Source of the DNA: Okeanomitos corallinicola TIOX110
Lineage (GTDB): Bacteria; Cyanobacteriota; Cyanobacteriia; Cyanobacteriales; Nostocaceae
Length of the DNA: 32,000 nucleotides
Direction of reading: 5' to 3'
Assembly (NCBI RefSeq): GCF_038050375.1
Contig: NZ_CP150886.1
Coordinates: 1,063,318-1,095,317, forward strand
Numbering within the stretch: the stretch's first letter is position 1; the number at the start of each line of letters is the position of its first letter. A program made the position numbers and the translations under genes. Of the stretch, positions 11,618 to 32,000 are shown in pieces. Under the pieces are notes generated by a model. That model was not told where the DNA came from. It did no database searches and saw only the letters and a program-made list of their open reading frames with translations.

Positions 11618-12628
11618 ATGACCCAAAATATCAAAAAATCTCTGAAATTTCTAGACTTATTTTGTGGAATGGGTGGATTCCGCATTGCTACAGAAATAGT
11701 ATGTCAAGAGTTTAATATTCAACCATTATGTGTTTTTTCCAGTGATATAGATCCTCATGTTCAAAAAATCTATGCAGCAAATTTTGGTGAACAACCCACA
11801 GGAGACATTACCAAAATAGACACTCAAGATATTCCTGAACATGATATTTTATTTGCTGGTTTTCCCTGTCAACCTTTTAGTATCTGTGGAGATATGAAAG
11901 GTTTTGATGATATTCGTGGTACTTTGTTTTTTGATATAGTTCGGATTTTAGAAGCTAAAAAACCTACTGCTTTTGTATTAGAAAATGTCAAACAATTAAA
12001 AGGACATAATCAGGGAAAAACTCTACAAAGGATTATGGAAGCTATCAAAGATTTAGGATATCATGCTGATTATCGGGTTTTGAATGCTCTGAATTTTGGT
12101 GTACCACAAAAGCGGGAAAGAATTTTTATTGTGGGTTTTCAGGAAGAAGTTAATTTTGTTTGGACAGAGGGTGGTTTAAAAATGAAACCCTTAACCGAAG
12201 TTTTAGAAAATAACGTTGATGAATTTTATTATGCTTCTGAGAAAATTAGAAATAATCGGTTAGCCAAACGTCAGGGAAAATCTCATGATTATAAAATGAG
12301 TATTTGGCATGAAAATAAAGGTGGAAATATTAGTGTTTATCCCTATTCCTGTGCTTTGAGGGCGGGAGCTTCTTATAATTATTTATTGGTGAATGGGGAA
12401 AGAAGATTAACGGAAAGGGAGATGTTAAGGTTACAAGGTTTCCCTGAAGATTATCAAATCATTGGTAGTTATCAAGGGATGAGAAAATTAGCGGGTAATT
12501 CTGTTGCTGTTCCTTGTGTTGCTGCTGTTGTGCGTGGGGTTTTGAGTGTGATGTTAGGGAAAGAAATTAATACAAATGCCAATCAAATCTGTAGTCCAAA
12601 ACAATTAAGTTTGTCCTTGGATATCTGA
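11618..12628 (+). CDS. DNA (cytosine-5)-methyltransferase of a type II restriction-modification system
   Basis: 336 aa with the canonical m5C motifs: I DLFCGMGGF, IV GFPCQPFS, VI ENV, VIII QKRERIFIVG, IX RRLTEREMLRLQGFP, X GNSVAVP. Confidence 0.95.
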   Translation: MTQNIKKSLKFLDLFCGMGGFRIATEIVCQEFNIQPLCVFSSDIDPHVQKIYAANFGEQPTGDITKIDTQDIPEHDILFAGFPCQPFSICGDMKGFDDIRGTLFFDIVRILEAKKPTAFVLENVKQLKGHNQGKTLQRIMEAIKDLGYHADYRVLNALNFGVPQKRERIFIVGFQEEVNFVWTEGGLKMKPLTEVLENNVDEFYYASEKIRNNRLAKRQGKSHDYKMSIWHENKGGNISVYPYSCALRAGASYNYLLVNGERRLTEREMLRLQGFPEDYQIIGSYQGMRKLAGNSVAVPCVAAVVRGVLSVMLGKEINTNANQICSPKQLSLSLDI

Positions 12629-14441: not shown

Positions 14442-14612
14442 AAGAAGATTAACGGAAAGGGAGATGCTAAGATTACAAGGTTTCCCTGAAGATTATCAGA
14501 TTATTGGTAGTTATCAAGCTATGAGGAAATTAGCGGGTAATTCTGTAGCTATTCCTTGTGTTATGGCTGTTGTACGTGAGGTTTTAAATGCAATGCTGGG
14601 AAAAGTATTATA
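14442..14612 (+). pseudogene. 3' remnant of a second m5C DNA methyltransferase gene (motifs IX-X only)
   Basis: 14442-14607 aligns without gaps to 12400-12565 of the intact MTase, with about 20 mismatches by eye. It translates as RRLTEREMLRLQGFPEDYQIIGSYQAMRKLAGNSVAIPCVMAVVREVLNAMLGKVL*. No 5' part of the gene is present. Confidence 0.85.
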
Positions 14613-14655: not shown

Positions 14656-15621
14656 CTAATCGGCCTTAAACCTAGCCAACAATTCCTGACGAGAAAGATT
14701 AGATAAATTCAGTAACAATTGCGTTCTCTCAGTTAAAGAAAGTTCCATCATTTGATTGACAACAGTAGATAATTCCTCATCTAAATTACCAAAACGTACT
14801 GCTAACAAACTCTCTACCATTAAACGCTGTCCATCTACTTGTCCTTCCTGTCTTCCTTCCTGTCTTCCTTCCTGTCTTCCTTCCTGTCTTCCTTCCTGTC
14901 TTCCTTCTTCTATTCCTTCTTGTTTCCATGCTTCCCGTTGTTTGATATACGCTGGTGATAAACTCATAATTAACTCCTTAACTTCTTCATCGTTGACACT
15001 ACTATTCAATTCTAAGTTTTTACGCCAAGATGCAAACATTTCTACTAATTTATCCCATTTTTCATCTCCATTCGAGAGTTGAACTACTGTGCTGATAGCT
15101 TCTGTTTGAGTTCTACCTTTTCCTAGTACCCTTAACCATAGTGTATCTTCTGTGATGGGTAACTGATTAATAGCAACTATAGCCGCTTTTAATAATTTTG
15201 GCAGAAAATAAACTCCTTTTTCCCATCCTTCTTTTGCAGTCGCTCCAAAACCTTCAAGGATTCTTTCTGAACAGGTTGGTGTTAAAATCCATAAATATGG
15301 TGATTCTGCTGCTGATAAAGAACGTTTTTCTCTTTTTGCTTCTCGCAATAAATCACTCTGTACACTATACAATTTTAACAAACAACTTCTAATTTCTACT
15401 TCATTAGGAGCATTACGGTAAGGTTCAAATAAACAGCTTGTAACTGCCATTTTTCCTAATATTCCTAATTCTGAATTGATAGATGTACTTGTCGGTACAA
15501 ACCAAACATCTATTTCTTGTACTTCGCTTTTGACATCTTTGCTAGCTGTCACACTACCTAGTGGTGTTAATATTTCCTCTAGATATTCTTTTGCTAGTTG
15601 ATCATGGAGTTGTCTGGTCAT
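14656..15621 (-). CDS. DUF4351-type protein (multi-copy cyanobacterial family with a putative nuclease-like N-terminus)
   Basis: 321 aa. The N-terminus HDQLAKEYLEEIL...SEVQEIDVWFVP and C-terminus LLAVRFGNLDEEL...LSNLSRQELLARF are typical of this family. The centre carries an (EGRQ) repeat expansion. Confidence 0.65.
   Translation of the reverse strand: MTRQLHDQLAKEYLEEILTPLGSVTASKDVKSEVQEIDVWFVPTSTSINSELGILGKMAVTSCLFEPYRNAPNEVEIRSCLLKLYSVQSDLLREAKREKRSLSAAESPYLWILTPTCSERILEGFGATAKEGWEKGVYFLPKLLKAAIVAINQLPITEDTLWLRVLGKGRTQTEAISTVVQLSNGDEKWDKLVEMFASWRKNLELNSSVNDEEVKELIMSLSPAYIKQREAWKQEGIEEGRQEGRQEGRQEGRQEGRQEGQVDGQRLMVESLLAVRFGNLDEELSTVVNQMMELSLTERTQLLLNLSNLSRQELLARFKAD
14843..14914. repeat. 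In-frame 12-bp tandem repeat (CCTTCCTGTCTT: 5 perfect units plus 1 degenerate unit) encoding (EGRQ)n
   Basis: Direct reading of 14843-14902 shows five identical 12-mers, followed by ccttcttctatt. Confidence 0.9.
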
Positions 15622-18986: not shown

Positions 18987-19625
18987 TTATCTTCCTAAGT
19001 CGTGCATTTGATTAATTACATCTGCACATTTGTTAGTAACACTTTCTAATTCATCCTTTCTTGTGGAAGTTGGTGCATCAATTAATTCACCAATTCTAAT
19101 AGTCATCGGAACTTTACGAGGAATAGGCGAACCTTTTTGAAGCACCTTTTCACTTCCCCATAAACTCACCGGTAATAAAGGTGCTTTTGCTTTTGCTGCT
19201 AACAATGCAGCACCTCTTTTAGGGTCATGAATACGACCATCTTCTGTCCGAGTTCCTTCTAAGAACACACCCACAGCCCAACCGTTTTCTAAATATTCCA
19301 AAGCGGCTCGAATAGCCCCACGGTCAGCACTACCACGACTAACAGGATAAGCACCGTATAATTTAATTGCTTGGGCTAAAACAGGCACTTTAAATAATTC
19401 TTCCTTAGCCATGTATGCAACTGGCCGACGGATGCAATTAGCAACTATGGGAGGATCAAAGTAACTTGCATGGTTACTGACTACCACCACAGAACCAGTT
19501 TTGGGGACATTTTCCACCCCATAGATTTTCCCCCCAAAGTAAGCGTGTAGCATGGGGCTAACTACTGACCACTTGAAAGCGTGGTAAAGTGCCAAACTAA
19601 TAAAGGGTTCGCGTTCTCTGGTCAC
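18987..19625 (-). CDS. plsC: 1-acyl-sn-glycerol-3-phosphate acyltransferase
   Basis: 212 aa with a GTG start. HX4D motif NHASYFD, and FLEGTR and PLLPV blocks typical of the PlsC family. Confidence 0.9.
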   Translation of the reverse strand: MTREREPFISLALYHAFKWSVVSPMLHAYFGGKIYGVENVPKTGSVVVVSNHASYFDPPIVANCIRRPVAYMAKEELFKVPVLAQAIKLYGAYPVSRGSADRGAIRAALEYLENGWAVGVFLEGTRTEDGRIHDPKRGAALLAAKAKAPLLPVSLWGSEKVLQKGSPIPRKVPMTIRIGELIDAPTSTRKDELESVTNKCADVINQMHDLGR

Positions 19626-19687
19626 GGATAATAATTTGAATAGGACTATGGTCTAGGATAAGCTATGGCGATCACTTTGCGTTAGTC
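19552..19687. repeat. Direct repeat copy A (plsC codons 1-25 plus about 62 bp upstream)
   Basis: Aligns colinearly with 21093-21228, with about 12-13 mismatches over about 137 bp by eye. Confidence 0.9.
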
Positions 19688-19793
19688 AAACCCATCATTT
19701 AGAAACACCAAAGTACATTTCAGGTACATAAATTACAAAGTATTCAGAAGAAAGCCTCATGCTCAGAAACTTTCAACCTTCTGTTCCTACTAC

Positions 19794-21092: not shown

Positions 21093-21228
21093 ATGGGGCT
21101 AACCACCAAACACTTAAAAGCGTGGTAAAGTGCCAAACTAATCAAGAGTTCGCGTTCTCTGGTCACGGATAATAATTTGAATAGGACTATGGTCTAGAAT
21201 AAGCTATGGCGATCGCTTTTTGTTAGTT
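21093..21228. repeat. Direct repeat copy B (a decayed copy of the plsC 5' end plus upstream region)
   Basis: It contains GTG-TRERELLISLALYHAFKCLVVSPITNY-stop on the minus strand (21080-21166), a 28-codon relic of the plsC N-terminus. It carries an intact HIP1 site where copy A has GCGATCAC. Confidence 0.9.
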
Positions 21229-21459
21229 AATTGGGGTAAATTTAAGACTTGAACGGGTTAAATGATATATAAATTGTTAATATCTTCTGTTTACAGTAGT
21301 CTGTGACAAGCCAGAGCTTTATTTATAAAATAGACATTTCCGAGAATTAAATGCGCGTGAATTAAAACTCTTGTAGAGGCGTTTTATTGATGTACTTTTA
21401 TTTTATAGTAGAAGTTAGGACTCAAAAGAATAATAAATATTAGCAATAACTAATTACCG

Positions 21460-24343: not shown

Positions 24344-24736
24344 GTGACAGGACTAACACCTGTGAAACTTGACTCTAAAACTGTGAGTATTACTGAAATT
24401 GAAACCCAGTCCCCAACAAAAGAAAATACTGATCATCCTCAACACAAAAAGCAGGAATCAGTCTGGATGGTGTTGGGAACAACCTTTATTACAATATTTT
24501 TAGCGGAAATTGGTGATAAAACTCAACTATCCACCCTATTAATGAGTGCGGAATCCCATGCACCTTGGGTAGTTTTCCTGGGTTCAGCAGTTGCTCTCAT
24601 CACTACCAGTTTACTAGGTGTTTTACTTGGTGGTTTTATTGCCAGTAAACTCAGTCCTAAAACTGTAGAAAAATCAGCAGGGGTAATCTTGCTATTGATT
24701 TCCCTGATGTTGGTGTGGGATGTAATTCAAGGTTAA
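24344..24736 (+). CDS. UPF0016 (GDT1/TMEM165/Mnx) family half-size membrane protein, first of a pair
   Basis: 130 aa. The signature EIGDKTQL lies in the first TM helix. The track start is GTG at 24344; an in-frame ATG at 24467 (MVLGTTFITIFLAEIGDKTQ) is a plausible alternative start. Confidence 0.8.
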   Translation: MTGLTPVKLDSKTVSITEIETQSPTKENTDHPQHKKQESVWMVLGTTFITIFLAEIGDKTQLSTLLMSAESHAPWVVFLGSAVALITTSLLGVLLGGFIASKLSPKTVEKSAGVILLLISLMLVWDVIQG

Positions 24737-24833: not shown

Positions 24834-25121
24834 ATGGAATGGAATCTTTTAGGACTAAGCTTTATTACGGTTTTTCTCTCAGAATTAGGAGATAAAAGCC
24901 AGTTAGCAGCGATCGCATTATCTGGCCAAGGTCAATCTCGTAAAGCTATATTTTTTGGGACAGCAGGTGCTTTAGTATTAACCAGTTTACTAGGAGCATT
25001 AGCGGGGGGAGCAGTTGCAGAATTCCTTCCTACCAGGATTTTAAAAGCGATCGCTGCTTTAGGATTTGCAATTTTAGCCATTCGTCTACTGTTACCCGGT
25101 AAGGAAGAAGAAACCGAATGA
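24834..25121 (+). CDS. UPF0016 (GDT1/TMEM165/Mnx) family half-size membrane protein, second of a pair
   Basis: 95 aa. Signature ELGDKSQLA, three TM helices and two HIP1 sites. Confidence 0.8.
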   Translation: MEWNLLGLSFITVFLSELGDKSQLAAIALSGQGQSRKAIFFGTAGALVLTSLLGALAGGAVAEFLPTRILKAIAALGFAILAIRLLLPGKEEETE

Positions 25122-25301
25122 AGGATTGAGAACGCATTTACGAGAATTTGGTTTTATAATGCTTGTGCTGCTTAATCAACATGAATTAGTTTTTTTGTCA
25201 ATGCGTAACTCCTATGTATCTATATTTGTAACTTGCAGCCATAAAGACTACATTTTTTCTTTAAAACTACCACTATTGAGCATTTTATAGTTCCAAAAAA
25301 C

Positions 25302-26717
25302 ATAGACAAATATCTCATGCCTTTCATTTGTCGGGAATAACCCCGACAGGGCGAACTACAACGCCCTCTATCCCTAGACTAAATGCTGTCGGGACTACTT
25401 TACGTAAAATATTCAAACTACCATTGACATCAGCATGAATCAATAAACCATTACCTGCTCTATAAAGTTTAGTTTTGATTCTGCGACCACTAAATTTCAC
25501 TTCTTTCGAGTCAACTTTGCCATAAGTAGGAATCACATCTTGGTCTAAAAAAGAAGCTACAGAAGTGTAGGACTCCTCAGAAACCAATACATTTATTCCC
25601 ACTAATTTCGCTTTATAACTCAACTGCTGTACAAATCGGCTATGAGGAATACAAACAAAGTTTTGATTATTTCTACTGCCCAAATTCCCATTCTGTTTCC
25701 ACAAGGAATTTTGACCTATTACTAAAGTCCCAATCCCACACTTGACTAAATGGTTAATAATTAAGCGACTGGCTTTATGCAGATAATCATCTACTCGAAA
25801 ATTCCGTTTTTTAGTTAAACTTTGTAGTCGTTTAGAGGTCTTTTGATGTGCAGGTAGTAAAGATTGTAAATTGGCTTTTCTTTGATTATAATAACGATTA
25901 ATTGATTTGATAATCCGCCCGGAAACCAGAACTGGTATAAATCCCGGCTGGTTTGATGTTAAGGTTGCTAGATTATCTATTCCTAAATCAATCGCTGCTA
26001 TGGAATTAGGGTCTAAACCATAATCTGTTTCCTCTTTTTCATAGACAACTTCTACTACATAATGGTCAATCTTGGGGACAATTCTTACTTGATTGAGATA
26101 ACAATAGTCTACTTTTGTAGGAATGTGAATCTGTGTTTGTGACAGATGAATCAACCCAGATTTCATTTTGGGTTTACTCACTGCTTGGGCTGTATAAACT
26201 AATAAATGTCTACCTTTTTCTTTGTGTTTATATTTAGGTAATTTCGGTCTACCTAAAAATTTGGATTTATCTTCTGCATAAGCTTTAATTGCTGCAAAAA
26301 AACTTAACCAGTTGCGATGTAGTCCTAATAATACTTGTTGGGCAACTTTGGCTGGTAAGACTCGGTATGGTTCTGTCGCTTTTAACTGTTTTGCTAAACA
26401 ATTGTAATCGAGGTATTTTTGAGTAAAGATGAAACTTTGGCGAATATGGAAGTTAGCATAATTGTAGAGGTTTTTGGCAGCAAAACATAATTTATCAATC
26501 TCCTGATAATGGGGATGATTTCTTTGAATGATATGCCGCTCGACTACTTGCATACACTAACTGGTTTCTATGAATATTCGCCCATATATACTAACATATC
26601 TTAGATCTGATAATGCACAAAATTCTTGCTCAGTTCTCTTTGCACAAGAAAGTCTATATGAGTTATTTTAGCTGACTTCTGTGTGATTAATGACTATAGA
26701 TGACTATATTTGTCTAT
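25302..26717 (-). mobile_element. Solo-tnpB insertion element (IS200/IS605 family, IS1341-like group); boundaries are tentative
   Basis: The tnpB ORF is flanked by a 12-bp inverted repeat: ATAGACAAATAT (25302-25313) and ATATTTGTCTAT (26706-26717). No tnpA is present. The right boundary coincides with the point where smc-like coding sequence begins. Confidence 0.45.
25324..26553 (-). CDS. tnpB: TnpB (OrfB) RNA-guided endonuclease-type transposon protein
   Basis: 409 aa. RuvC-like triad contexts AIDLGIDNLATL, VSEESYTS and IHADVNGSLNILRK. It belongs to the subgroup with SFLD in place of the CxxC zinc finger. Confidence 0.9.
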   Translation of the reverse strand: MQVVERHIIQRNHPHYQEIDKLCFAAKNLYNYANFHIRQSFIFTQKYLDYNCLAKQLKATEPYRVLPAKVAQQVLLGLHRNWLSFFAAIKAYAEDKSKFLGRPKLPKYKHKEKGRHLLVYTAQAVSKPKMKSGLIHLSQTQIHIPTKVDYCYLNQVRIVPKIDHYVVEVVYEKEETDYGLDPNSIAAIDLGIDNLATLTSNQPGFIPVLVSGRIIKSINRYYNQRKANLQSLLPAHQKTSKRLQSLTKKRNFRVDDYLHKASRLIINHLVKCGIGTLVIGQNSLWKQNGNLGSRNNQNFVCIPHSRFVQQLSYKAKLVGINVLVSEESYTSVASFLDQDVIPTYGKVDSKEVKFSGRRIKTKLYRAGNGLLIHADVNGSLNILRKVVPTAFSLGIEGVVVRPVGVIPDK

Positions 26718-26950
26718 AAATTCGGCGAAGTTTACCAATACTTTCGATGAAGTAGATATATTTTTAGATGGGGCAAACGTGGAAAGATTTAGCTAAAATG
26801 ATTAAACAACAAGAACAAGCACAACAGGCACAGTTTATTGTTGTCAGTTTGCGTCGTCCGATGATAGAATCAGCCGAACGCACAATTGGCGTAACTCAAG
26901 CTAGAGGTGCTTATACTCAGGTTTTGGGTATTAAGTTAAGTGACAGGTGA
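26704..26950 (+). pseudogene. smc: 3' remnant of chromosome segregation protein SMC, frameshifted
   Basis: One frame reads ...[17 protein letters not shown] (26743-26796). Shifting the frame by one nucleotide continues with [50 protein letters not shown], which is the Walker B/D-loop region and C-terminus of SMC. One extra T at about 26788 explains the shift. More than 1000 upstream codons are absent. Confidence 0.8.
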
Positions 26951-27010
26951 CAGGGAACAGGTAATAAATTGATTAATTACCCAATACCCAATACCAAATT
27001 ACCAATCACC
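26940..27010. repeat. Two STRR heptamer blocks (GTGACAG family, then AATTACC family)
   Basis: gtgacag gtgacag ggaacag gtaataa (26940-26967, covering the smc stop), then attaccc aataccc aatacca aattacc aatcacc (26976-27010). Confidence 0.85.
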
Positions 27011-27095
27011 TTAATTTTCTGTTAAAAATAGTTTATAGATAAACAGGATTCGAGATTGCCTACGGCACGCTAAGCGAACAGGACGACCTACTATA

Positions 27096-28094
27096 ATGAC
27101 CTCCGAGCAAATAATTAGACGTTCCGATATATTAAACACCCAAGTAATCACCCGCGATAATGGCAAAAGGCTAGGTATCGTGAGTCAAGTGTGGGTTGAC
27201 ATTGATCAAAGAGAGGTTGTGGCGCTTGGTTTGCGAGACAGCCTCATCTCTATCTCTGGTCTACCTCGTCAAATGTATCTTAACAGTATCAATCAAATCG
27301 GTGATGTGATTTTGGTTGATAATGAGGATGTGATTGAAGATATTGAAGTTGAAAGCCTTAGTAATTTGATGAACTGGGAAGTCATCACCGAAACTGGCGA
27401 AGTGTTAGGTAAGGTGAGGGGCTTTAAGTTTGATGGTGAAAGCGGTAAAATTTACTCTATAGTCATAGCCTCTTTGGGAGTTCCCCAAATACCCGACCAA
27501 TTTTTGAGTACCTACGAAATCTCAATAGATGAAGTTGTTAGTACCGGACCTAGTAGGTTAATTGTCTTTGAAGGTTCGGAAGAAAGGGTAAATCAACTAA
27601 CAGTAGGCGTTTTAGAACGTTTAGGTATTGGTAGAGCGCCTTGGGAAAGAGACTTAGAAGAAGAATATGGTTATTCTGCACCACGGACAGTTTCCCCAGC
27701 TAACCAACTACCCAGTGGAGTACCATTAGAACCCCCCCGGCCTAGAGTCCGCACTCCTGAACCTGTAGTACAGGAAGAAGAATGGACAGAAGACTATATA
27801 GAAGAAGAAAGACCCCAGCGTAGAACAATGGAAGCCCGTTATTACGAATCCATACAATACGAAGAGGAACAGGAAGAAGAAGATAACTGGAGTGAAGCGA
27901 CATATAAAGATAGATATCAAGAACCTCCAAAAAGATATGAACCTCAGCCTATCAACAACACATACTCTGACGAATATGATGAATATGATGATGATGTAGA
28001 AGGTGATGCTTGGGAAGATGCACCCAAACCTGTGAATATTCCTAAAAAGGTGAAGGAAAGACAAGTGGAATACGAAACAGAAGACGGATATTAA
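27096..28094 (+). CDS. PRC-barrel domain protein with a long acidic C-terminal tail
   Basis: 332 aa. Two PRC-barrel-like segments (ILNTQVITRDNGKRLGIVSQVWVD; NWEVITETGEVLGKVRGFKFD) and a C-terminal half rich in E, D, Y and P. Confidence 0.8.
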   Translation: MTSEQIIRRSDILNTQVITRDNGKRLGIVSQVWVDIDQREVVALGLRDSLISISGLPRQMYLNSINQIGDVILVDNEDVIEDIEVESLSNLMNWEVITETGEVLGKVRGFKFDGESGKIYSIVIASLGVPQIPDQFLSTYEISIDEVVSTGPSRLIVFEGSEERVNQLTVGVLERLGIGRAPWERDLEEEYGYSAPRTVSPANQLPSGVPLEPPRPRVRTPEPVVQEEEWTEDYIEEERPQRRTMEARYYESIQYEEEQEEEDNWSEATYKDRYQEPPKRYEPQPINNTYSDEYDEYDDDVEGDAWEDAPKPVNIPKKVKERQVEYETEDGY

Positions 28095-28103
28095 GTTTTT
28101 TGC

Positions 28104-28140
28104 ACCCCCTCTACTACTATTCAGAGGGGGTTAATTATTC
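28104..28140 (+). terminator. GC-rich hairpin terminator after the PRC-barrel gene
   Basis: CCCCCTCT (28104-28111) pairs with AGAGGGGG (28122-28129), followed by a T-rich stretch TTAATTATT. Confidence 0.5.
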
Positions 28141-28146
28141 AAATTT

Positions 28147-28194
28147 GATGTGGTTTGAGTGGGACAAAGCGAAGAATTTAATCAATATCTGTTA
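28147..28194 (+). pseudogene. Possible N-terminal relic of a BrnT-type toxin gene
   Basis: A 15-codon ORF, MWFEWDKAKNLINIC*, resembles the conserved BrnT start M-x-FEWDxxKNxxN. The rest of the gene is missing. Confidence 0.35.
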
Positions 28195-28270
28195 ATATTT
28201 GAAATCACGATTTTTATATTTTTAAAAACTTTACTTATTTACCTTTTTATATCATTAACAAACTGATGAC

Positions 28271-28494
28271 TAATTAGGGTTTGCTGATAAAGTCTTGTCG
28301 TGGAGACAGGTGACAGGTGACAGGTGACAGGTGACAGTTTCAAGAGTTGGATGGGAACTATTTTTCCTTGAAGCAGGAATTAAATGCAAGGTTTTTCAGT
28401 TCTCACCTCATCAAAGCTTGCATTTTTTGAAAGTCAAAATCGCTAAAATCGTTTACCTGTAATGTTTTGAGATTTATTCAGCAAGCCCTAATTA
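28271..28494. mobile_element. MITE-like segment bounded by about 21-bp imperfect inverted repeats and carrying an STRR block
   Basis: TAATTAGGGTTTGCTGATAAA (28271-28291) versus TTTATTCAGCAAGCCCTAATTA (28473-28494): reverse complements apart from one mismatch and one 1-nt indel. The internal STRR is ggagaca (ggtgaca)x4 at 28302-28337. The right arm covers the last two codons and the stop of the ROCO gene. Confidence 0.4.
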
Positions 28495-31121
28495 ACTGGT
28501 TTTAATGTAGAAGTTGGTTGTGGTGAAATTTCTGAAGCAGGAACACCCATGAAGAAAATTAGCAATACTAAAACAAATGCTGCAAATGCTCCTGTTGCTT
28601 TCACCTGAGTTTTATTCAAAGGGATTTTTGCTTCTAAACCAAGTTCACCTGAAAATAAATAACCTGCTATCCCAGCAAATGTTGCTGCTAAAAATCTCAC
28701 AATAGCTAGAGTACCACCTGTCATTAGTCTAGGATTGAGAACTAAGACAATAAAAGTAGTTAATACTCCTAAAGCCATAGCTAAAGCAATACCACGTTCA
28801 GCAGAAGAAATAGTTTGTTTTGGTTGTTTTTGTGGTTCTGGTGTTTCTGGTGGTGTCATGTCATTTCGCTTTGGTTGTGGTGATGTAGTTCTATTATATT
28901 CTCCAAGTCTGTAGTTTTCTTTTTTAGATTCAACACCATTTAACAAATCCCGTGCATCAAAAGTTTCTGTAAGTCCTTCAGGAATAAAGGGTAAACTCTT
29001 CTCTGCATAAATAAGTAAGTTTTGATAATCTGCAAAAAGATGAGGATGTCCGGGAATTGGTACTTTTTCCTTTGCTTGCAAACCTTTGAAAGTTTTATGA
29101 ATAGCATCAAATTGAGAACGAATTATTGCTAATAGTTCTTTGCGTGTGGAAATATTACCACTAATAGAAATAAAGATTTTCCGGTCTTCCTGGTCACTTT
29201 TGATTAATGCTCGACTATCTCTTTCTCTTAACACAATACCACTCCTCCACCAAGTTTGCTTCTCGGCTTTGTGGTGCATTCTCACAATAAAACGAGAGAT
29301 AATACTACCAGGTAAAACATTATAATGATATTGAAAACCTAAAACATTTTCCCATTCCCCAGTTGCAGGTTCTTCTTTCGGTAACAAATCAGGAATTAGA
29401 TATCTATCCCTATCATCTAATAGAAAACAAAGTTCAAACTTCTGCATCATTTCAATAATGAATTGTTTTTTATTGTCGGGATATTTAGAATTATCTAAAA
29501 TTCTTTGTAGTTGTTGATATTGTAAAATCCCCCGAAATTGAGTCATGAGCAGATTGTCATTGAGAATTTTGTACACACCATTTGTTACCCATTCTGGATT
29601 GAGAACAGAAGTATCTTGTACGCGGGGGTCTTCACGGAAATTGAGAACTATTCCTAAGCGATGCAGTAATTCAATTAGAGTAGATTGTTTAATTTCTTCG
29701 GTAATTTTTTCTTGCAGACAAATACTTTCATATTCATGATAAGCAATGTAATCCTTTTTCATTTCTTCCAGTTCTTGTTTCACCAGAAACCAACTGAGGG
29801 GTAATAAATCATAAATATCTTCTAATTTATCAATTTCGCGTTTAATGATTGATAATAATTTTTCTACACCATCTCCGGTTTTACTGGATATAGGTACTAT
29901 TTCTTTAATATTTTTGTATTTATTAAGTAAACCCTTTTGGTCAATATCCAATGGATGCTCATCAGTTTTATTCCCCACTAGGATAATTGGAGAATTACCA
30001 CCAAAGCTTTGAATCATTTTCAGCCAGTATTCCAGTCTATTTTGGTTTTCATCTTCACGAGCATTAATTACTAGCAAATAAAGACTGCGTTTGGTGAGAA
30101 AAAACTGGTGCGTAGCGTGCATGATTTCCTGTCCACCAAAGTCCCATACATTCAAGCGGATGGTTTGCTGATTAACTTCTAGATACCAATTTTGAATATT
30201 GATACCTTCAGTTTTACTTTCATTGGCATCAAACTTATTTTCAATCAGACGTTTCACCAGAGAAGTTTTCCCCACAGTTCCTTGACCGACCAGCAATACC
30301 TTAGCTTCGTTGAGTGGCTTTTTCTCCTCAGTTTGGAGAGAGAAATAGTAGCTAAAAATCTTCGCGGGGTCACCCAAATCATCCCCACTGCTACCTAAAA
30401 TTTCTGCGGGAATATTTAGCCGATTTTCACGCAAATCTAACCTTTTCAGGTTAGATAATTGTTGAATTTCTGCTGGCAAGGTCGTCAGTTGATTGTGACT
30501 GAGGTCAAGCTGAGTAAGTTTTGAGAGTTGACCTATTTCTGCTGGCAAGGTCGTCAGTTGATTGTTTCTGAGGTCAAGCCCACTGAGATTGGAGAGTTGA
30601 CCTATTACTGCTGGCAAGGTCATCAGTTGATTGTTACTGAGGTGAAACCATCTGAGGTGGGAGAGTTGACCTATTACTGCTGGCAAGGTCATCAGTTGAT
30701 TGTTACTGAGGTGAAACCATCTGAGGTGGGAGAGTTGACCTATTACTGCTGGCAAGGTCGTCAGTTGATTGTTACTGAGGTCAAGCCAGCTGAGGTGGGA
30801 GAGTTGACCTATTTCTGCTGGCAAGGTCGTCAGTTGATTGTCACTGAGGTAAAGCTGGTTGAGGTGGGAGAGTTGACCTATTACTGCTGGCAAGGTCGTC
30901 AGTTGATTGTTACTGAGGTCAAGCCAGCTGAGATTGGAGAGTTGACCTATTACTGCTGGCAAAGTCGTCAGTTGATTGTTACTGAGGTCAAGCTCGTTGA
31001 GGTTAGAGAGTTGACCTATTTCTGCTGGCAAAGTTCTTAACCGTTGACCAGAAAGGTTTAATGTTGTTGCTTGGTTTTTGGCAGCTTTTTGAATAATTTG
31101 CAGCAGTTGTTCATTAGTCAT
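28488..31121 (-). CDS. ROCO family protein: LRR (about 10 repeats), Roc GTPase, COR, and a C-terminal three-helix membrane domain
   Basis: 877 aa. 23-aa LRRs (LDLSNNQLTTLPAVIGQLSxLxx). Roc G1 GQGTVGKTS, G3 WDFGGQE, G4 GNKTD. A COR-like region of about 350 aa. The C-terminus has three hydrophobic helices (GIALAMALGVLTTFIVLVL, LAIVRFLAATFAGIAGYLF, GAFAAFVLVLLIFFMGV). Confidence 0.9.
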   Translation of the reverse strand: MTNEQLLQIIQKAAKNQATTLNLSGQRLRTLPAEIGQLSNLNELDLSNNQLTTLPAVIGQLSNLSWLDLSNNQLTTLPAVIGQLSHLNQLYLSDNQLTTLPAEIGQLSHLSWLDLSNNQLTTLPAVIGQLSHLRWFHLSNNQLMTLPAVIGQLSHLRWFHLSNNQLMTLPAVIGQLSNLSGLDLRNNQLTTLPAEIGQLSKLTQLDLSHNQLTTLPAEIQQLSNLKRLDLRENRLNIPAEILGSSGDDLGDPAKIFSYYFSLQTEEKKPLNEAKVLLVGQGTVGKTSLVKRLIENKFDANESKTEGINIQNWYLEVNQQTIRLNVWDFGGQEIMHATHQFFLTKRSLYLLVINAREDENQNRLEYWLKMIQSFGGNSPIILVGNKTDEHPLDIDQKGLLNKYKNIKEIVPISSKTGDGVEKLLSIIKREIDKLEDIYDLLPLSWFLVKQELEEMKKDYIAYHEYESICLQEKITEEIKQSTLIELLHRLGIVLNFREDPRVQDTSVLNPEWVTNGVYKILNDNLLMTQFRGILQYQQLQRILDNSKYPDNKKQFIIEMMQKFELCFLLDDRDRYLIPDLLPKEEPATGEWENVLGFQYHYNVLPGSIISRFIVRMHHKAEKQTWWRSGIVLRERDSRALIKSDQEDRKIFISISGNISTRKELLAIIRSQFDAIHKTFKGLQAKEKVPIPGHPHLFADYQNLLIYAEKSLPFIPEGLTETFDARDLLNGVESKKENYRLGEYNRTTSPQPKRNDMTPPETPEPQKQPKQTISSAERGIALAMALGVLTTFIVLVLNPRLMTGGTLAIVRFLAATFAGIAGYLFSGELGLEAKIPLNKTQVKATGAFAAFVLVLLIFFMGVPASEISPQPTSTLKPVN
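30470..31021. repeat. 69-bp tandem array (8 full units) encoding the LRRs; units 30608-30676 and 30677-30745 are identical
   Basis: The motif CTGCTGGCAAGGTC recurs at 30470, 30539, 30608, 30677, 30746, 30815, 30884 and 30953, exactly 69 bp apart. Two neighbouring units match at 69 of 69 positions. Confidence 0.95.
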
Positions 31122-31417
31122 GGGTAGGTCAACCGTTTCGCGGAAGTCAAAAATAAAAATTATTATTACCCCATTGGTGAATCAAGGGGTTTGTATGTTT
31201 ATTTGATTTAGTAACCACAGGAAAAACAGTTATTCGTTCTATTTTTTCACATTTGTAGCCATCCACATAATCATTGTTTTGTTATAGACATTATTAAATC
31301 TACTACCAGTTGCTGATACCAAGAATTGGTAGCACTTCACAAGCACTTGAAGTGTGAAGGTTGAGGAACTAAATAGTAAGCTGTTACGCAGCTAAATTTT
31401 ATAATCTTAATATTGTT

Positions 31418-31453
31418 AAGTCTTGTGGTGCGGGCATCTTGCCCGCTAGACTT
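31418..31453. repeat. GC-rich composite hairpin in an AT-rich spacer (probably a member of a dispersed small-repeat family)
   Basis: AAGTCT tgtggt GCGGGCA tct TGCCCGC t AGACTT. A related half-site, AAGTCTTGTCGTGG, occurs at 28290-28303. Confidence 0.5.
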
Positions 31454-31525
31454 ATACAAATTAAATGCACAACATCTTATAGGTTTTTATCAAGATTGGA
31501 TAGATTTGTATAAAATAATTGCCTA

Positions 31526-31554
31526 TTGACATAATATGCTAGTTTTAGCATACT
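31526..31554 (+). promoter_or_regulatory. Putative promoter of the toxin-antitoxin operon with an overlapping palindromic operator
   Basis: TTGACA (31526-31531), a 17-nt spacer, then CATACT (31549-31554). The palindrome TATGCTA-gttt-TAGCATA (31535-31552) spans the spacer and the -10 element. The start codon is at 31563. Confidence 0.4.
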
Positions 31555-31562
31555 AAAATTAC

Positions 31563-31949
31563 ATGACTGAAAAACAAGAAAAACCTCTCAAATGGATTGC
31601 AAGTGCGTTAGACGACTTGAAAAATTTCCCTGAAGATGTAAAAGACGTAATGGGTTATGCTCTTGACCTAGCACAGCATGGTCAAAAACACCCTGATGCA
31701 AAACCTTTACACGGTTTCTCAGGAGCAGGTGTTTTAGAAATTGTAGACGATTTTGATGGAGATACATATAGAGCAATTTATACTGTTAAATTTGAGGGTG
31801 TTGTTTATTTACTACATTCTTTTCAGAAAAAATCAAAAACAGGCATTGCTACACCAAAGCAAGATATAGAGCTAATAAAAAATAGGCTGAAAGAAGCTCA
31901 AAAAGATTATCAAAAAGAAATAGCTAGGAAAAACGGAGTCAAAAAATGA
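31563..31949 (+). CDS. RelE/ParE-superfamily toxin, HigB/Gp49-like (DUF891 type)
   Basis: 128 aa. KPLKWIASALDDLKNFPEDVK ... YRAIYTVKFEGVVYLLHSFQKKSK is typical of Gp49-like HigB toxins. It is followed by an overlapping HTH gene. Confidence 0.8.
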   Translation: MTEKQEKPLKWIASALDDLKNFPEDVKDVMGYALDLAQHGQKHPDAKPLHGFSGAGVLEIVDDFDGDTYRAIYTVKFEGVVYLLHSFQKKSKTGIATPKQDIELIKNRLKEAQKDYQKEIARKNGVKK

Positions 31950-32000
31950 ACAAAGAAAATGAAATTATTGCTAGTAGCGGAAATGTGTTCGCTGATTTAG
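31946..32000 (+). CDS. HigA-like XRE-family HTH antitoxin, N-terminal part (runs off the right edge)
   Basis: The ATG at 31946 overlaps the toxin stop (ATGA). It reads MNKENEIIASSGNVFADL; the SSGNVFADLG motif is typical of the partner antitoxin of Gp49-like toxins. Confidence 0.7.
   Translation, partial: MNKENEIIASSGNVFADL

Follow-up and report, generated by a model that had tools for sequence, protein, structure and literature searches.

A gene for a ROCO GTPase ending in a predicted membrane domain of three transmembrane helices (3TM module) lies at positions 28488..31121 of the minus strand in a stretch of 32,000 nucleotides from the cyanobacterium Okeanomitos corallinicola TIOX110 (contig NZ_CP150886.1, positions 1,063,318 to 1,095,317), in the following called the window. 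Prokaryotic ROCO proteins are structural models for LRRK2. To our knowledge, there is no prokaryotic ROCO protein with a known cellular function or output. In this study, we describe the domain anatomy of the gene product, its conservation, the distribution of its tail family and the rule of domain order which this family follows. By profile and alignment, the tail is a distinct, strongly conserved and cyanobacteria-specific 3TM domain family with a strict domain order. The tail family, the grammar of its domain order and its sharing by two divergent ROCO lineages are new here. We tentatively place the gene product among the AP-GTPase conflict systems, as a ROCO GTPase tethered to the membrane in which the 3TM module would serve as a portable connector or oligomerisation domain.

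The open reading frame (ORF) is a complete coding sequence of 877 codons plus stop with an ATG start. Its product is the 'COR domain-containing protein' of O. corallinicola TIOX110 (Nostocales, Aphanizomenonaceae; 100% identity). An earlier sequence-only reading of the window had placed this ORF at the same positions, together with about ten leucine-rich repeats (LRRs) of 23 amino acids, a Roc domain with the motifs GQGTVGKTS, DFGGQE and NKTD, a COR-like region, a proline/glutamine-rich linker and three hydrophobic C-terminal helices. This anatomy was borne out, linker and helices included: the Pfam models for LRR, Roc, COR-A and COR-B match far above their gathering cut-offs and all three G motifs are intact. 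From the N-terminus, the protein consists of an LRR array, the predicted ligand-binding sensor (aa 24-240; 30402..31052, minus strand as for all features of the gene; Pfam LRR_8, LRR_4 and LRR_14; predicted local distance difference test (pLDDT) >93), a Roc (Ras of complex) GTPase domain (aa ~270-435; 29817..30314; Pfam Roc 8.3e-34, Ras 9.6e-22), COR-A (aa 441-580; 29382..29801; PF16095, 1.7e-41) and COR-B (aa 592-729; 28935..29348; PF25497, 5.3e-35), the two latter matched over their full length. There follow a P/Q-rich flexible linker (aa 730-769; 28815..28934), which is 12-35% identical among orthologues and modelled as disordered (pLDDT <50), the conserved 3TM module of ~94 amino acids (aa 770-863; 28533..28814) and a P/S/T-rich C-terminal tail (aa 864-877 plus stop; 28488..28532; 21-57% identity), which is predicted to be extracytoplasmic by the positive-inside analysis. 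A scan for promoters and terminators was uninformative, the predicted 'terminators' being artefacts of the LRR repeats.

The Pfam Roc model match spans aa 274-387 and includes the P-loop (G279-S287, with K285), G3 (D327-Q331) and G4 (N384-D387), all of which vary little or not at all across 28 aligned orthologues. COR-A and COR-B stand immediately C-terminal to Roc, as the definition of ROCO GTPases demands. The protein thus belongs to the ROCO (Roc-COR) GTPases, and its motifs are conserved, GTP binding and hydrolysis and COR-mediated dimerisation being putative. The Chlorobium tepidum Roco structures 6HLU and 8R4B align end-to-end with aa 35-737 (E ~1e-101), and Methanosarcina barkeri Roco2 (4WNR) aligns as well (E 7e-91). 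With CtRoco (PDB 3DPU, 6HLU, 8R4B-D) the protein shares the order LRR-Roc-COR-A-COR-B, the intact G motifs and presumably the GTP-driven dimer-monomer cycle, COR-B being the dimerisation device in CtRoco. In this alignment the similarity stops at COR-B (~aa 737), and the window protein then adds a linker of 40 amino acids and the 3TM module. It should therefore be an integral membrane protein.

The sequence-only reading had likened the protein to immune proteins of the nucleotide-binding LRR (NLR) and STAND type. The logic of the layout holds; a repeat sensor, an NTPase switch and a variable output domain are common to the window protein, NLR/STAND proteins and the bacterial Avs and bNACHT systems. 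Membership in these families does not hold: no NACHT or NB-ARC match was found, Pfam gives only Ras-superfamily GTPase models in aa 262-438, and the NTPase is a Ras-like GTPase joined to COR and not a STAND ATPase. The protein is NLR-like at most by analogy.

The three hydrophobic segments of the module, TM1 (28737-28805), TM2 (28650-28718) and TM3 (28545-28613), reach Kyte-Doolittle maxima of 2.55, 1.83 and 2.49 over 19 residues, as compared to at most 1.07 in aa 1-740. AlphaFold2 (AF2), given an alignment of 20 tail sequences, places helices of ~23 residues each at aa 773-795, 802-824 and 837-859. With the window tail as reference sequence (158 bits with the local hidden Markov model), the profile of the module reads ..AERGIAL..(TM1)..NPR.M..GTLAIVRFLAA.FAGI.GY(TM2)..LGLEAK.P..KTQ.KATGAFAAF(TM3)..G.P. 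Invariant are R809 near the outer end of TM2, A812, F815-A816-G817, G820-Y821 and the GAFAAF motif of TM3; A812, A816-G817 and G820 form a ladder of small residues in TM2. Ladder and GAFAAF look like features of helix packing, and the helices appear uniformly hydrophobic with no amphipathic pattern of the kind that lines a pore. Lysine and arginine are unevenly distributed around the helices, with counts (n=53) of 1.94 in the N-flank and 2.47 in loop 2 versus 0.64 in loop 1 and 1.08 in the C-flank. This bias matches the positive-inside rule for a three-span topology with N-terminus in and C-terminus out (N-in/C-out), and hydropathy, AF2 helices, charge bias and domain order together suggest this topology. 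No Pfam, NCBIfam or PADLOC family covers the last 150 amino acids; weak NCBIfam matches of the tail to SPW_0924 (20 bits, cut-off 33) and MmpA (E 0.044), both small hydrophobic proteins, were rejected as chance. Foldseek found no structural relative of the module model in the PDB (best E 2.2).

A search with the last 150 amino acids alone returned 19 proteins, mostly small (85-256 aa), all of which carry a block of ~94 amino acids 60-80% identical to the window tail. In most of them the block is N-terminal and is followed by B-lectin, PA14, COP23 or GUN4; elsewhere a disordered or coiled-coil stretch precedes it. When 1.84 billion representative proteins were searched with a profile, just 147 clusters came up at E<=1e-3, 103 of them at E<=1e-10, and a further homology search with the module profile gave 19 mostly fragmentary matches. 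Every named bearer of the module is cyanobacterial, and no relatives turned up on viral contigs. Across unrelated architectures the module remains 60-85% identical. Among 152 module-bearing proteins scanned locally, it is N-terminal in 100, C-terminal in 17, internal in 13 and stands essentially alone in 15; 141 of the 152 have no TM-like segment beyond it. Pfam partners in 100 members are GUN4 (6), TPR (5) and TIR (4), then COP23, Peripla_BP_6, pentapeptide, LGFP and B-lectin (2 each), and ricin-B, vWA, caspase and COR (1 each).

The order of these partners follows a rule. TIR (P0190, P0197, P0199, P0221), caspase (P0215) and Roc-COR always precede the module. For LGFP, TPR and GUN4, a place on its C-terminal side was confirmed, and B-lectin, PA14 and COP23 follow it because their proteins begin with the module. 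The rule covers members with checked positions; for the periplasmic-binding members, a place on the C-terminal side is presumed. Protein P0221 of Leptothoe sp. LEGE 181152 (locus L026, 8001-9368) shows the order in full, with TIR at 17-133, 3TM at 176-261 and LGFP at 361-405. As a separate observation, the five TIR and caspase members are receptor-like single proteins, TIR-3TM followed by LGFP or by ~200 amino acids of unknown type and caspase-3TM followed by ~550 amino acids. Like the window protein, they place a cytoplasmic domain of the signalling or death type before the same module; unlike it, they have a putative ectodomain of 200-550 amino acids after the module, where the ROCO protein has ~14 residues. 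Their genes are solitary and lie amid housekeeping genes.

Compared with the window protein, orthologues of its own lineage (lineage A: Anabaena, Dolichospermum, Cuspidothrix, Cronbergia, Nostoc, Dendronalium, Cylindrospermum, Fischerella) are 68-87% identical in Roc, 59-81% in COR-A and COR-B, 61-85% in the module, 12-35% in the linker and 21-57% at the C-terminal end. In a second ROCO lineage (L005, L006, L011, L013), Roc, COR-A and COR-B are 30-42% identical and the module 69-82%. By these identities, the module is more conserved than any chassis bearing it. This argues against a passive hydrophobic anchor and for either a specific intramembrane interaction or recent shuffling. In locus L006 of the second lineage, another ROCO paralogue lies directly upstream.

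Variation of another kind is found in the sensor. The array holds nine perfect repeats of 23 amino acids and a degenerate tenth, in agreement with the first estimate of about ten, and its DNA is a 69-bp tandem repeat (8.2 copies, 91% matches in Tandem Repeats Finder, TRF). The repeats are near-identical apart from a few codons, and the variation is concentrated at the x positions of LxxLxLxxN. At the five exposed positions fixed a priori (codons 19, 20, 22, 1, 2 of the 23-aa register), nonsynonymous and synonymous codon-pair differences stand at 109:14 as compared to 102:91 elsewhere; both totals were added up manually from the counts per codon, and the comparison is descriptive only, because repeat pairs are not independent. 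A post-hoc set (codons 17, 19, 20, 22) gave 104:11 versus 107:94. A permutation test on this set was put aside as circular, the codons having been picked after viewing the data, and we therefore rely on the a-priori LxxLxLxxN positions. The variation falls on the predicted ligand-binding face. Orthologues range from 638 to 997 amino acids, a spread that is probably largely LRR copy number (repeats uncounted). Frameshifts interrupt the LRR array in two of 14 genomes, namely in Cylindrospermum NIES-4074 (L004, 7408-10285, frames 1>3>2) and Fischerella muscicola (L016, 7474-10330, frames 1>2), which could reflect repeat instability, pseudogenisation or assembly error. An antisense ORF of 170 amino acids inside the array (30528-31040, plus strand) is artefactual and no gene; its recurrence at orthologous loci comes solely from the conservation of the LRR repeat itself, and a seemingly conserved neighbour (C1) proved to be this same antisense ORF and was discarded.

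The tails of the best 120 full-length matches differ: 29 carry the 3TM module, 22 a TIR domain (~214-aa tail), one a CHAT domain and several another tail with one or two TM segments. The slot behind COR-B is thus variable, and the proposal of a sensor, an NTPase switch and a C-terminal output stands, with 3TM, TIR and CHAT interchanging after COR-B. The closest illustration are Nostocales LRR-Roc-COR-TIR paralogues (such as P0035, P0041, P0044, P0063; Npun_F6039), which are 57-67% identical over LRR-Roc-COR at 81-87% query coverage but hold a soluble TIR of ~214 amino acids in this slot instead of a membrane module.

Proteins of this layout have been catalogued before. Kaur, Iyer, Burroughs and Aravind (eLife 2021, PMC8195603) predicted that LRR+AP-GTPase+COR proteins act as counter-invader switches, their C-terminal domain being one of at least 24 alternatives, of which the text names TIR, DRHyd, caspase, trypsin, FGS, GT4 and effector-associated domains (EADs). 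The source data of their Figure 6 hold ~295 'COR+TM+TM' and ~581 'COR+TIR' strings, each protein apparently being listed about twice, so that the census comes to roughly 147 COR+TM+TM proteins by halved string counts. One of these is an orthologue with the module from Nostoc minutum (P0045; RCJ41185.1, A6770_08860), and the table shows that the Nostoc minutum NIES-26 genome also holds TIR-bearing paralogues. The expectation in the sequence-only reading that ROCO architectures usually end in soluble domains is contradicted by this census. A review of the Roco field from 2019, for its part, still described all prokaryotic Roco proteins as plain LRR-Roc-COR. When the main text of PMC8195603 was searched by terms, neither the TM tail nor its standing as a conserved family was found to be discussed. 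The architecture and the reading as an immune receptor are thus part of a published in-silico catalogue and neither is new, as Kaur et al. already published the AP-GTPase counter-invader model. Like the proteins of their Fig. 6D, the window protein has an evolving LRR, an AP-GTPase (Roc), COR and a variable C-terminal domain; its tail differs from the 'COR+TM+TM' listing in having three helices and in belonging to a family found on non-GTPase proteins too. With its rapidly evolving N-terminal LRR, AP-GTPase and COR it falls into the counter-invader class, and an anti-invader role is putative.

A pattern scan of ~185,000 species-representative genomes found 21 module loci, all cyanobacterial and 14 of them ROCO-fused; the pattern recovers 29/29 ROCO-fused forms and 42/128 (~33%) of other module members. 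Each locus, and each of the ~20 genomes, has exactly one detectable module gene: at no locus does another module gene lie within +/-10 kb, and in no scanned genome does a ROCO-3TM gene coexist with a second module gene. No neighbour from the window recurs at any orthologous locus, and synteny is confined to narrow clades and lost between genera. Defence genes among the neighbours (12 genomes, without background control) are the complete NsnA/NsnB/NsnC in one genome and a type II restriction-modification (R-M) system in another, with toxin-antitoxin (TA) genes at three loci. The NsnABC genes (L002, 13682-16932; PADLOC E 1e-130, 1e-127 and 1e-100) lie 3-6 kb downstream of the Nostoc sp. MS1 orthologue. 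The R-M system is at the Cylindrospermum locus, 5-7 kb away, where HicB, DUF433/DUF5615 and an intact BrnT/BrnA pair are found too, the latter (L029, 12127-12640) 210 bp downstream of the Cylindrospermum sp. NIES-4074 orthologue and in the other relative orientation. RelB/ParE is near the gene in Anabaena cylindrica. PADLOC matches of neighbours to PDC-M37B, DolB, TRIP13 and IetA were rejected, being housekeeping ClpB, and Cas12f matches are most likely the two TnpB ORFs of the set (Pfam Cas12f1-like_TNB). The gene is solitary, patchy and positionally unstable, often at the edge of a variable region, and is no consistent member of a defence island. Support for the accessory context proposed for it is weak: synteny is lost between genera and mobile or TA genes occur at some loci, but the neighbours are mostly housekeeping genes and the association with defence islands is weak and inconsistent.

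Known behaviour of CtRoco offers a model of how the window protein might work. In CtRoco, a compact nucleotide-free dimer held by COR-B turns into a GTP-bound monomer with a 135-degree swing of the LRR, and a nanobody in the concave face of the LRR clashes with COR-B and thereby makes the closed dimer sterically impossible (PMC5714945, PMC11052575). By analogy, the cytoplasmic LRR horseshoe of the window protein would bind a ligand via its concave face, its sole rapidly varying part, and the occupied face together with GTP would open the COR-B-mediated closed dimer into monomers. The flexible linker of ~40 amino acids would tie each COR-B to an N-in/C-out 3TM module. As COR-B is tethered in this way, dissociation of the dimer would change how the two modules pair in the membrane, and the monomer-dimer cycle might thus be coupled to their pairing. 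The output would lie in the membrane, either as altered integrity or as engagement or release of a conserved membrane partner. More generally, cyanobacteria may reuse the 3TM module to couple cytoplasmic Roc-COR, TIR or caspase to the membrane or to extracytoplasmic binding domains. The module is more likely a connector or oligomerisation domain than a dedicated pore toxin, because it serves NTPase-free proteins and proteins which already hold an effector.

Several points weigh against the membrane-tethered switch and its conflict role. The 40-aa disordered linker could decouple the state of COR-B from the membrane helices. GUN4 domains placed after a full module would be extracytoplasmic, which is awkward for the N-in/C-out topology, and AF2 confidence is moderate for the module alone (pLDDT 72.8, predicted template modelling score (pTM) 0.47) and low in the full-length model. 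The protein has no significant match in PADLOC-DB v2, its sole match being a P-loop fragment of LeoA (E 0.031). Since most orthologue neighbourhoods consist of housekeeping genes (DnaJ, cysteine synthase, ClpB, PsaAB, heme enzymes), they do not establish an immune role, and the literature searched holds no experiment on any bacterial ROCO function and no experimental paper tying Roco proteins to phage defence.

These same neighbourhoods speak for non-immune signalling, in which the ROCO GTPase would regulate a process of the Nostocales envelope, thylakoid or filament and the 3TM module would be a localisation anchor docking on a conserved membrane component. The gene is widely retained in Nostocales genera as a single copy per genome, its catalytic domains are 60-87% identical with intact GTPase motifs, and GUN4, COP23 and periplasmic-binding domains, as partners of the module, are non-toxins. 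Yet only 14 species-representative genomes carry it despite the full sensitivity of the pattern for ROCO-fused forms, there is neither conserved synteny nor an operon partner, LRR variation and changes in copy number are typical of recognition receptors, and close paralogues bear TIR or CHAT. On balance we regard a housekeeping role as unlikely.

The sequence-only reading favoured single-protein abortive infection, in which the activated ROCO switch would oligomerise its three C-terminal helices into a lethal depolarising pore. TM effectors are frequent in known defence systems. Here, the module sits where close paralogues have TIR or CHAT, the LRR surface diversifies and its array is frameshifted in 2/14 orthologues, the gene is patchy and single-copy in 14 species genomes with synteny lost between genera, and TA, R-M or NsnABC genes lie near some copies. 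Known TM effectors (SLATT 2TM, or those of cyclic-oligonucleotide-based antiphage signalling systems, CBASS) likewise combine short helical TM segments with a signalling module that carries or controls them. They differ in that the window module has no PADLOC match and is found mostly outside NTPase and nucleotide-signalling contexts. Against a dedicated membrane-disrupting effector speaks the portability of the module, which occurs in ~150 clusters, mostly at the N-terminus of small NTPase-free proteins with lectin, PA14, TPR, GUN4 or COP23 domains, and coexists in one polypeptide with genuine effectors (TIR, caspase). Its helices read as uniformly hydrophobic with small-residue packing motifs and not as amphipathic, the neighbourhoods are mostly housekeeping, and no relatives turned up on viral contigs. 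A lethal pore is therefore improbable in our judgement. Similarly doubtful is a related version, in which the tail would be an intramembrane signalling domain of cyanobacteria, not recognised before, with a conserved partner or a defined oligomeric state, and the ligand- and GTP-controlled COR-B cycle would gate its helices into a conducting or membrane-perturbing complex in immunity or cell death. A membrane adaptor, a TM analogue of EADs that would recruit effectors by homotypic pairing of the ROCO module with separate TIR-3TM or caspase-3TM proteins, appears very improbable: the module is very highly conserved across architectures and common to an NTPase protein and to TIR and caspase proteins, the pattern that defines EADs (PMC7159879, PMC8195603), but module genes are neither adjacent within +/-10 kb nor co-occurring (0 genomes, where ~4-5 of 14 would be expected if partners were obligatory, given the ~33% sensitivity), and TIR-3TM and caspase-3TM genes are solitary in housekeeping contexts.

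If the preferred reading as a membrane-tethered switch holds, a ROCO protein whose sole non-switch part is a conserved membrane module would offer the Roc-COR cycle a simple read-out in the form of membrane state or localisation. Through the module, Roc-COR, TIR and caspase would be joined across the membrane to lectin, PA14, LGFP and periplasmic-binding domains, and such a linkage points to a family of single-protein receptors spanning the membrane in multicellular cyanobacteria. Should the gated-helix version be true, it would give the first defined physiological output of any prokaryotic ROCO protein and a GTPase-gated membrane effector in cyanobacterial immunity or programmed cell death.

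At its 3' end, the gene meets an element resembling a miniature inverted-repeat transposable element (MITE), at 28271..28494, present once in the window, with 25-nt terminal inverted repeats (TAATTAGGG...; two matches in the arm search versus 0 expected). Inside it lies an array resembling short tandemly repeated repetitive (STRR) sequences, GACAGGT x4.7 at 28305-28337 (TRF). The ROCO gene shares its last two codons and TAG stop with the right arm, and its C-terminus as it stands today therefore seems to stem from the insertion; the window protein ends in ..KPVN* and the orthologues in ..PQPTPTP. Two MITE-like or STRR elements had been described as flanking the gene; there is one of each, nested at this end, and 31122-31562 on the other side holds no repeat element. 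Further downstream are a brnT-like relic (MWFEWDKAKNLINI, 28148..28189, plus strand, by frame translation) and, ~2 kb past the ROCO 3' end, a TnpB gene (IS200/IS605 OrfB, 25324..26553, minus strand; Pfam OrfB_IS605 and Cas12f1-like_TNB). Divergent from the ROCO gene, a higB-like toxin gene of the Gp49/DUF891 family (31563..31949, plus strand; PF05973, 1.6e-25) is followed by the start of an ORF (MNKENEIIASSGNVFADL..., 31946..32000, plus strand, by frame translation) that is clipped by the window end and that we take to be higA-like from typical HigA N-termini. Among the flanking features named earlier, higB, the MITE-like element and the STRR array are confirmed, whereas the brnT relic comes to a mere 14 codons whose likeness was judged by eye.

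The gene has no sites of the highly iterated palindrome HIP1, as had been remarked, but this absence is insignificant for the gene alone because just ~1.6 sites are expected at window density; as a sign of foreign origin it was rejected on the same count. Across 14 orthologous loci, HIP1 shows a mild, uneven depletion (0.50 versus 0.79 sites per kb, P ~0.02). All 20 HIP1 sites of the window (GCGATCGC) lie before 25048, and the last ~7 kb with TnpB, a PRC-barrel gene, ROCO and higB has none, a post-hoc observation with ~4-6 sites expected in 25048-32000. The PRC-barrel gene (27096-28094, plus strand) is flanked by STRR-like GACAGGT arrays at 26940-26962 and 28305-28337; the C-terminal half of its product is long, highly acidic and rich in E, D, Y and P, and a GC-rich hairpin comes right after its stop codon. 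Elsewhere in the window there are two dispersed repeat pairs, 12400-12563 / 14442-14605 (164 nt, 87%) and 19552-19689 / 21093-21230 (138 nt, 91%), and a 12-nt tandem array (TCCTTCCTGTCT, ~7 copies) at 14830-14937 within the minus-strand ORF 14656-15621. Two adjacent half-size ORFs of the GDT1 family of divalent cation/proton antiporters (24344-24736 and 24834-25121) hold one GDT1 repeat each.

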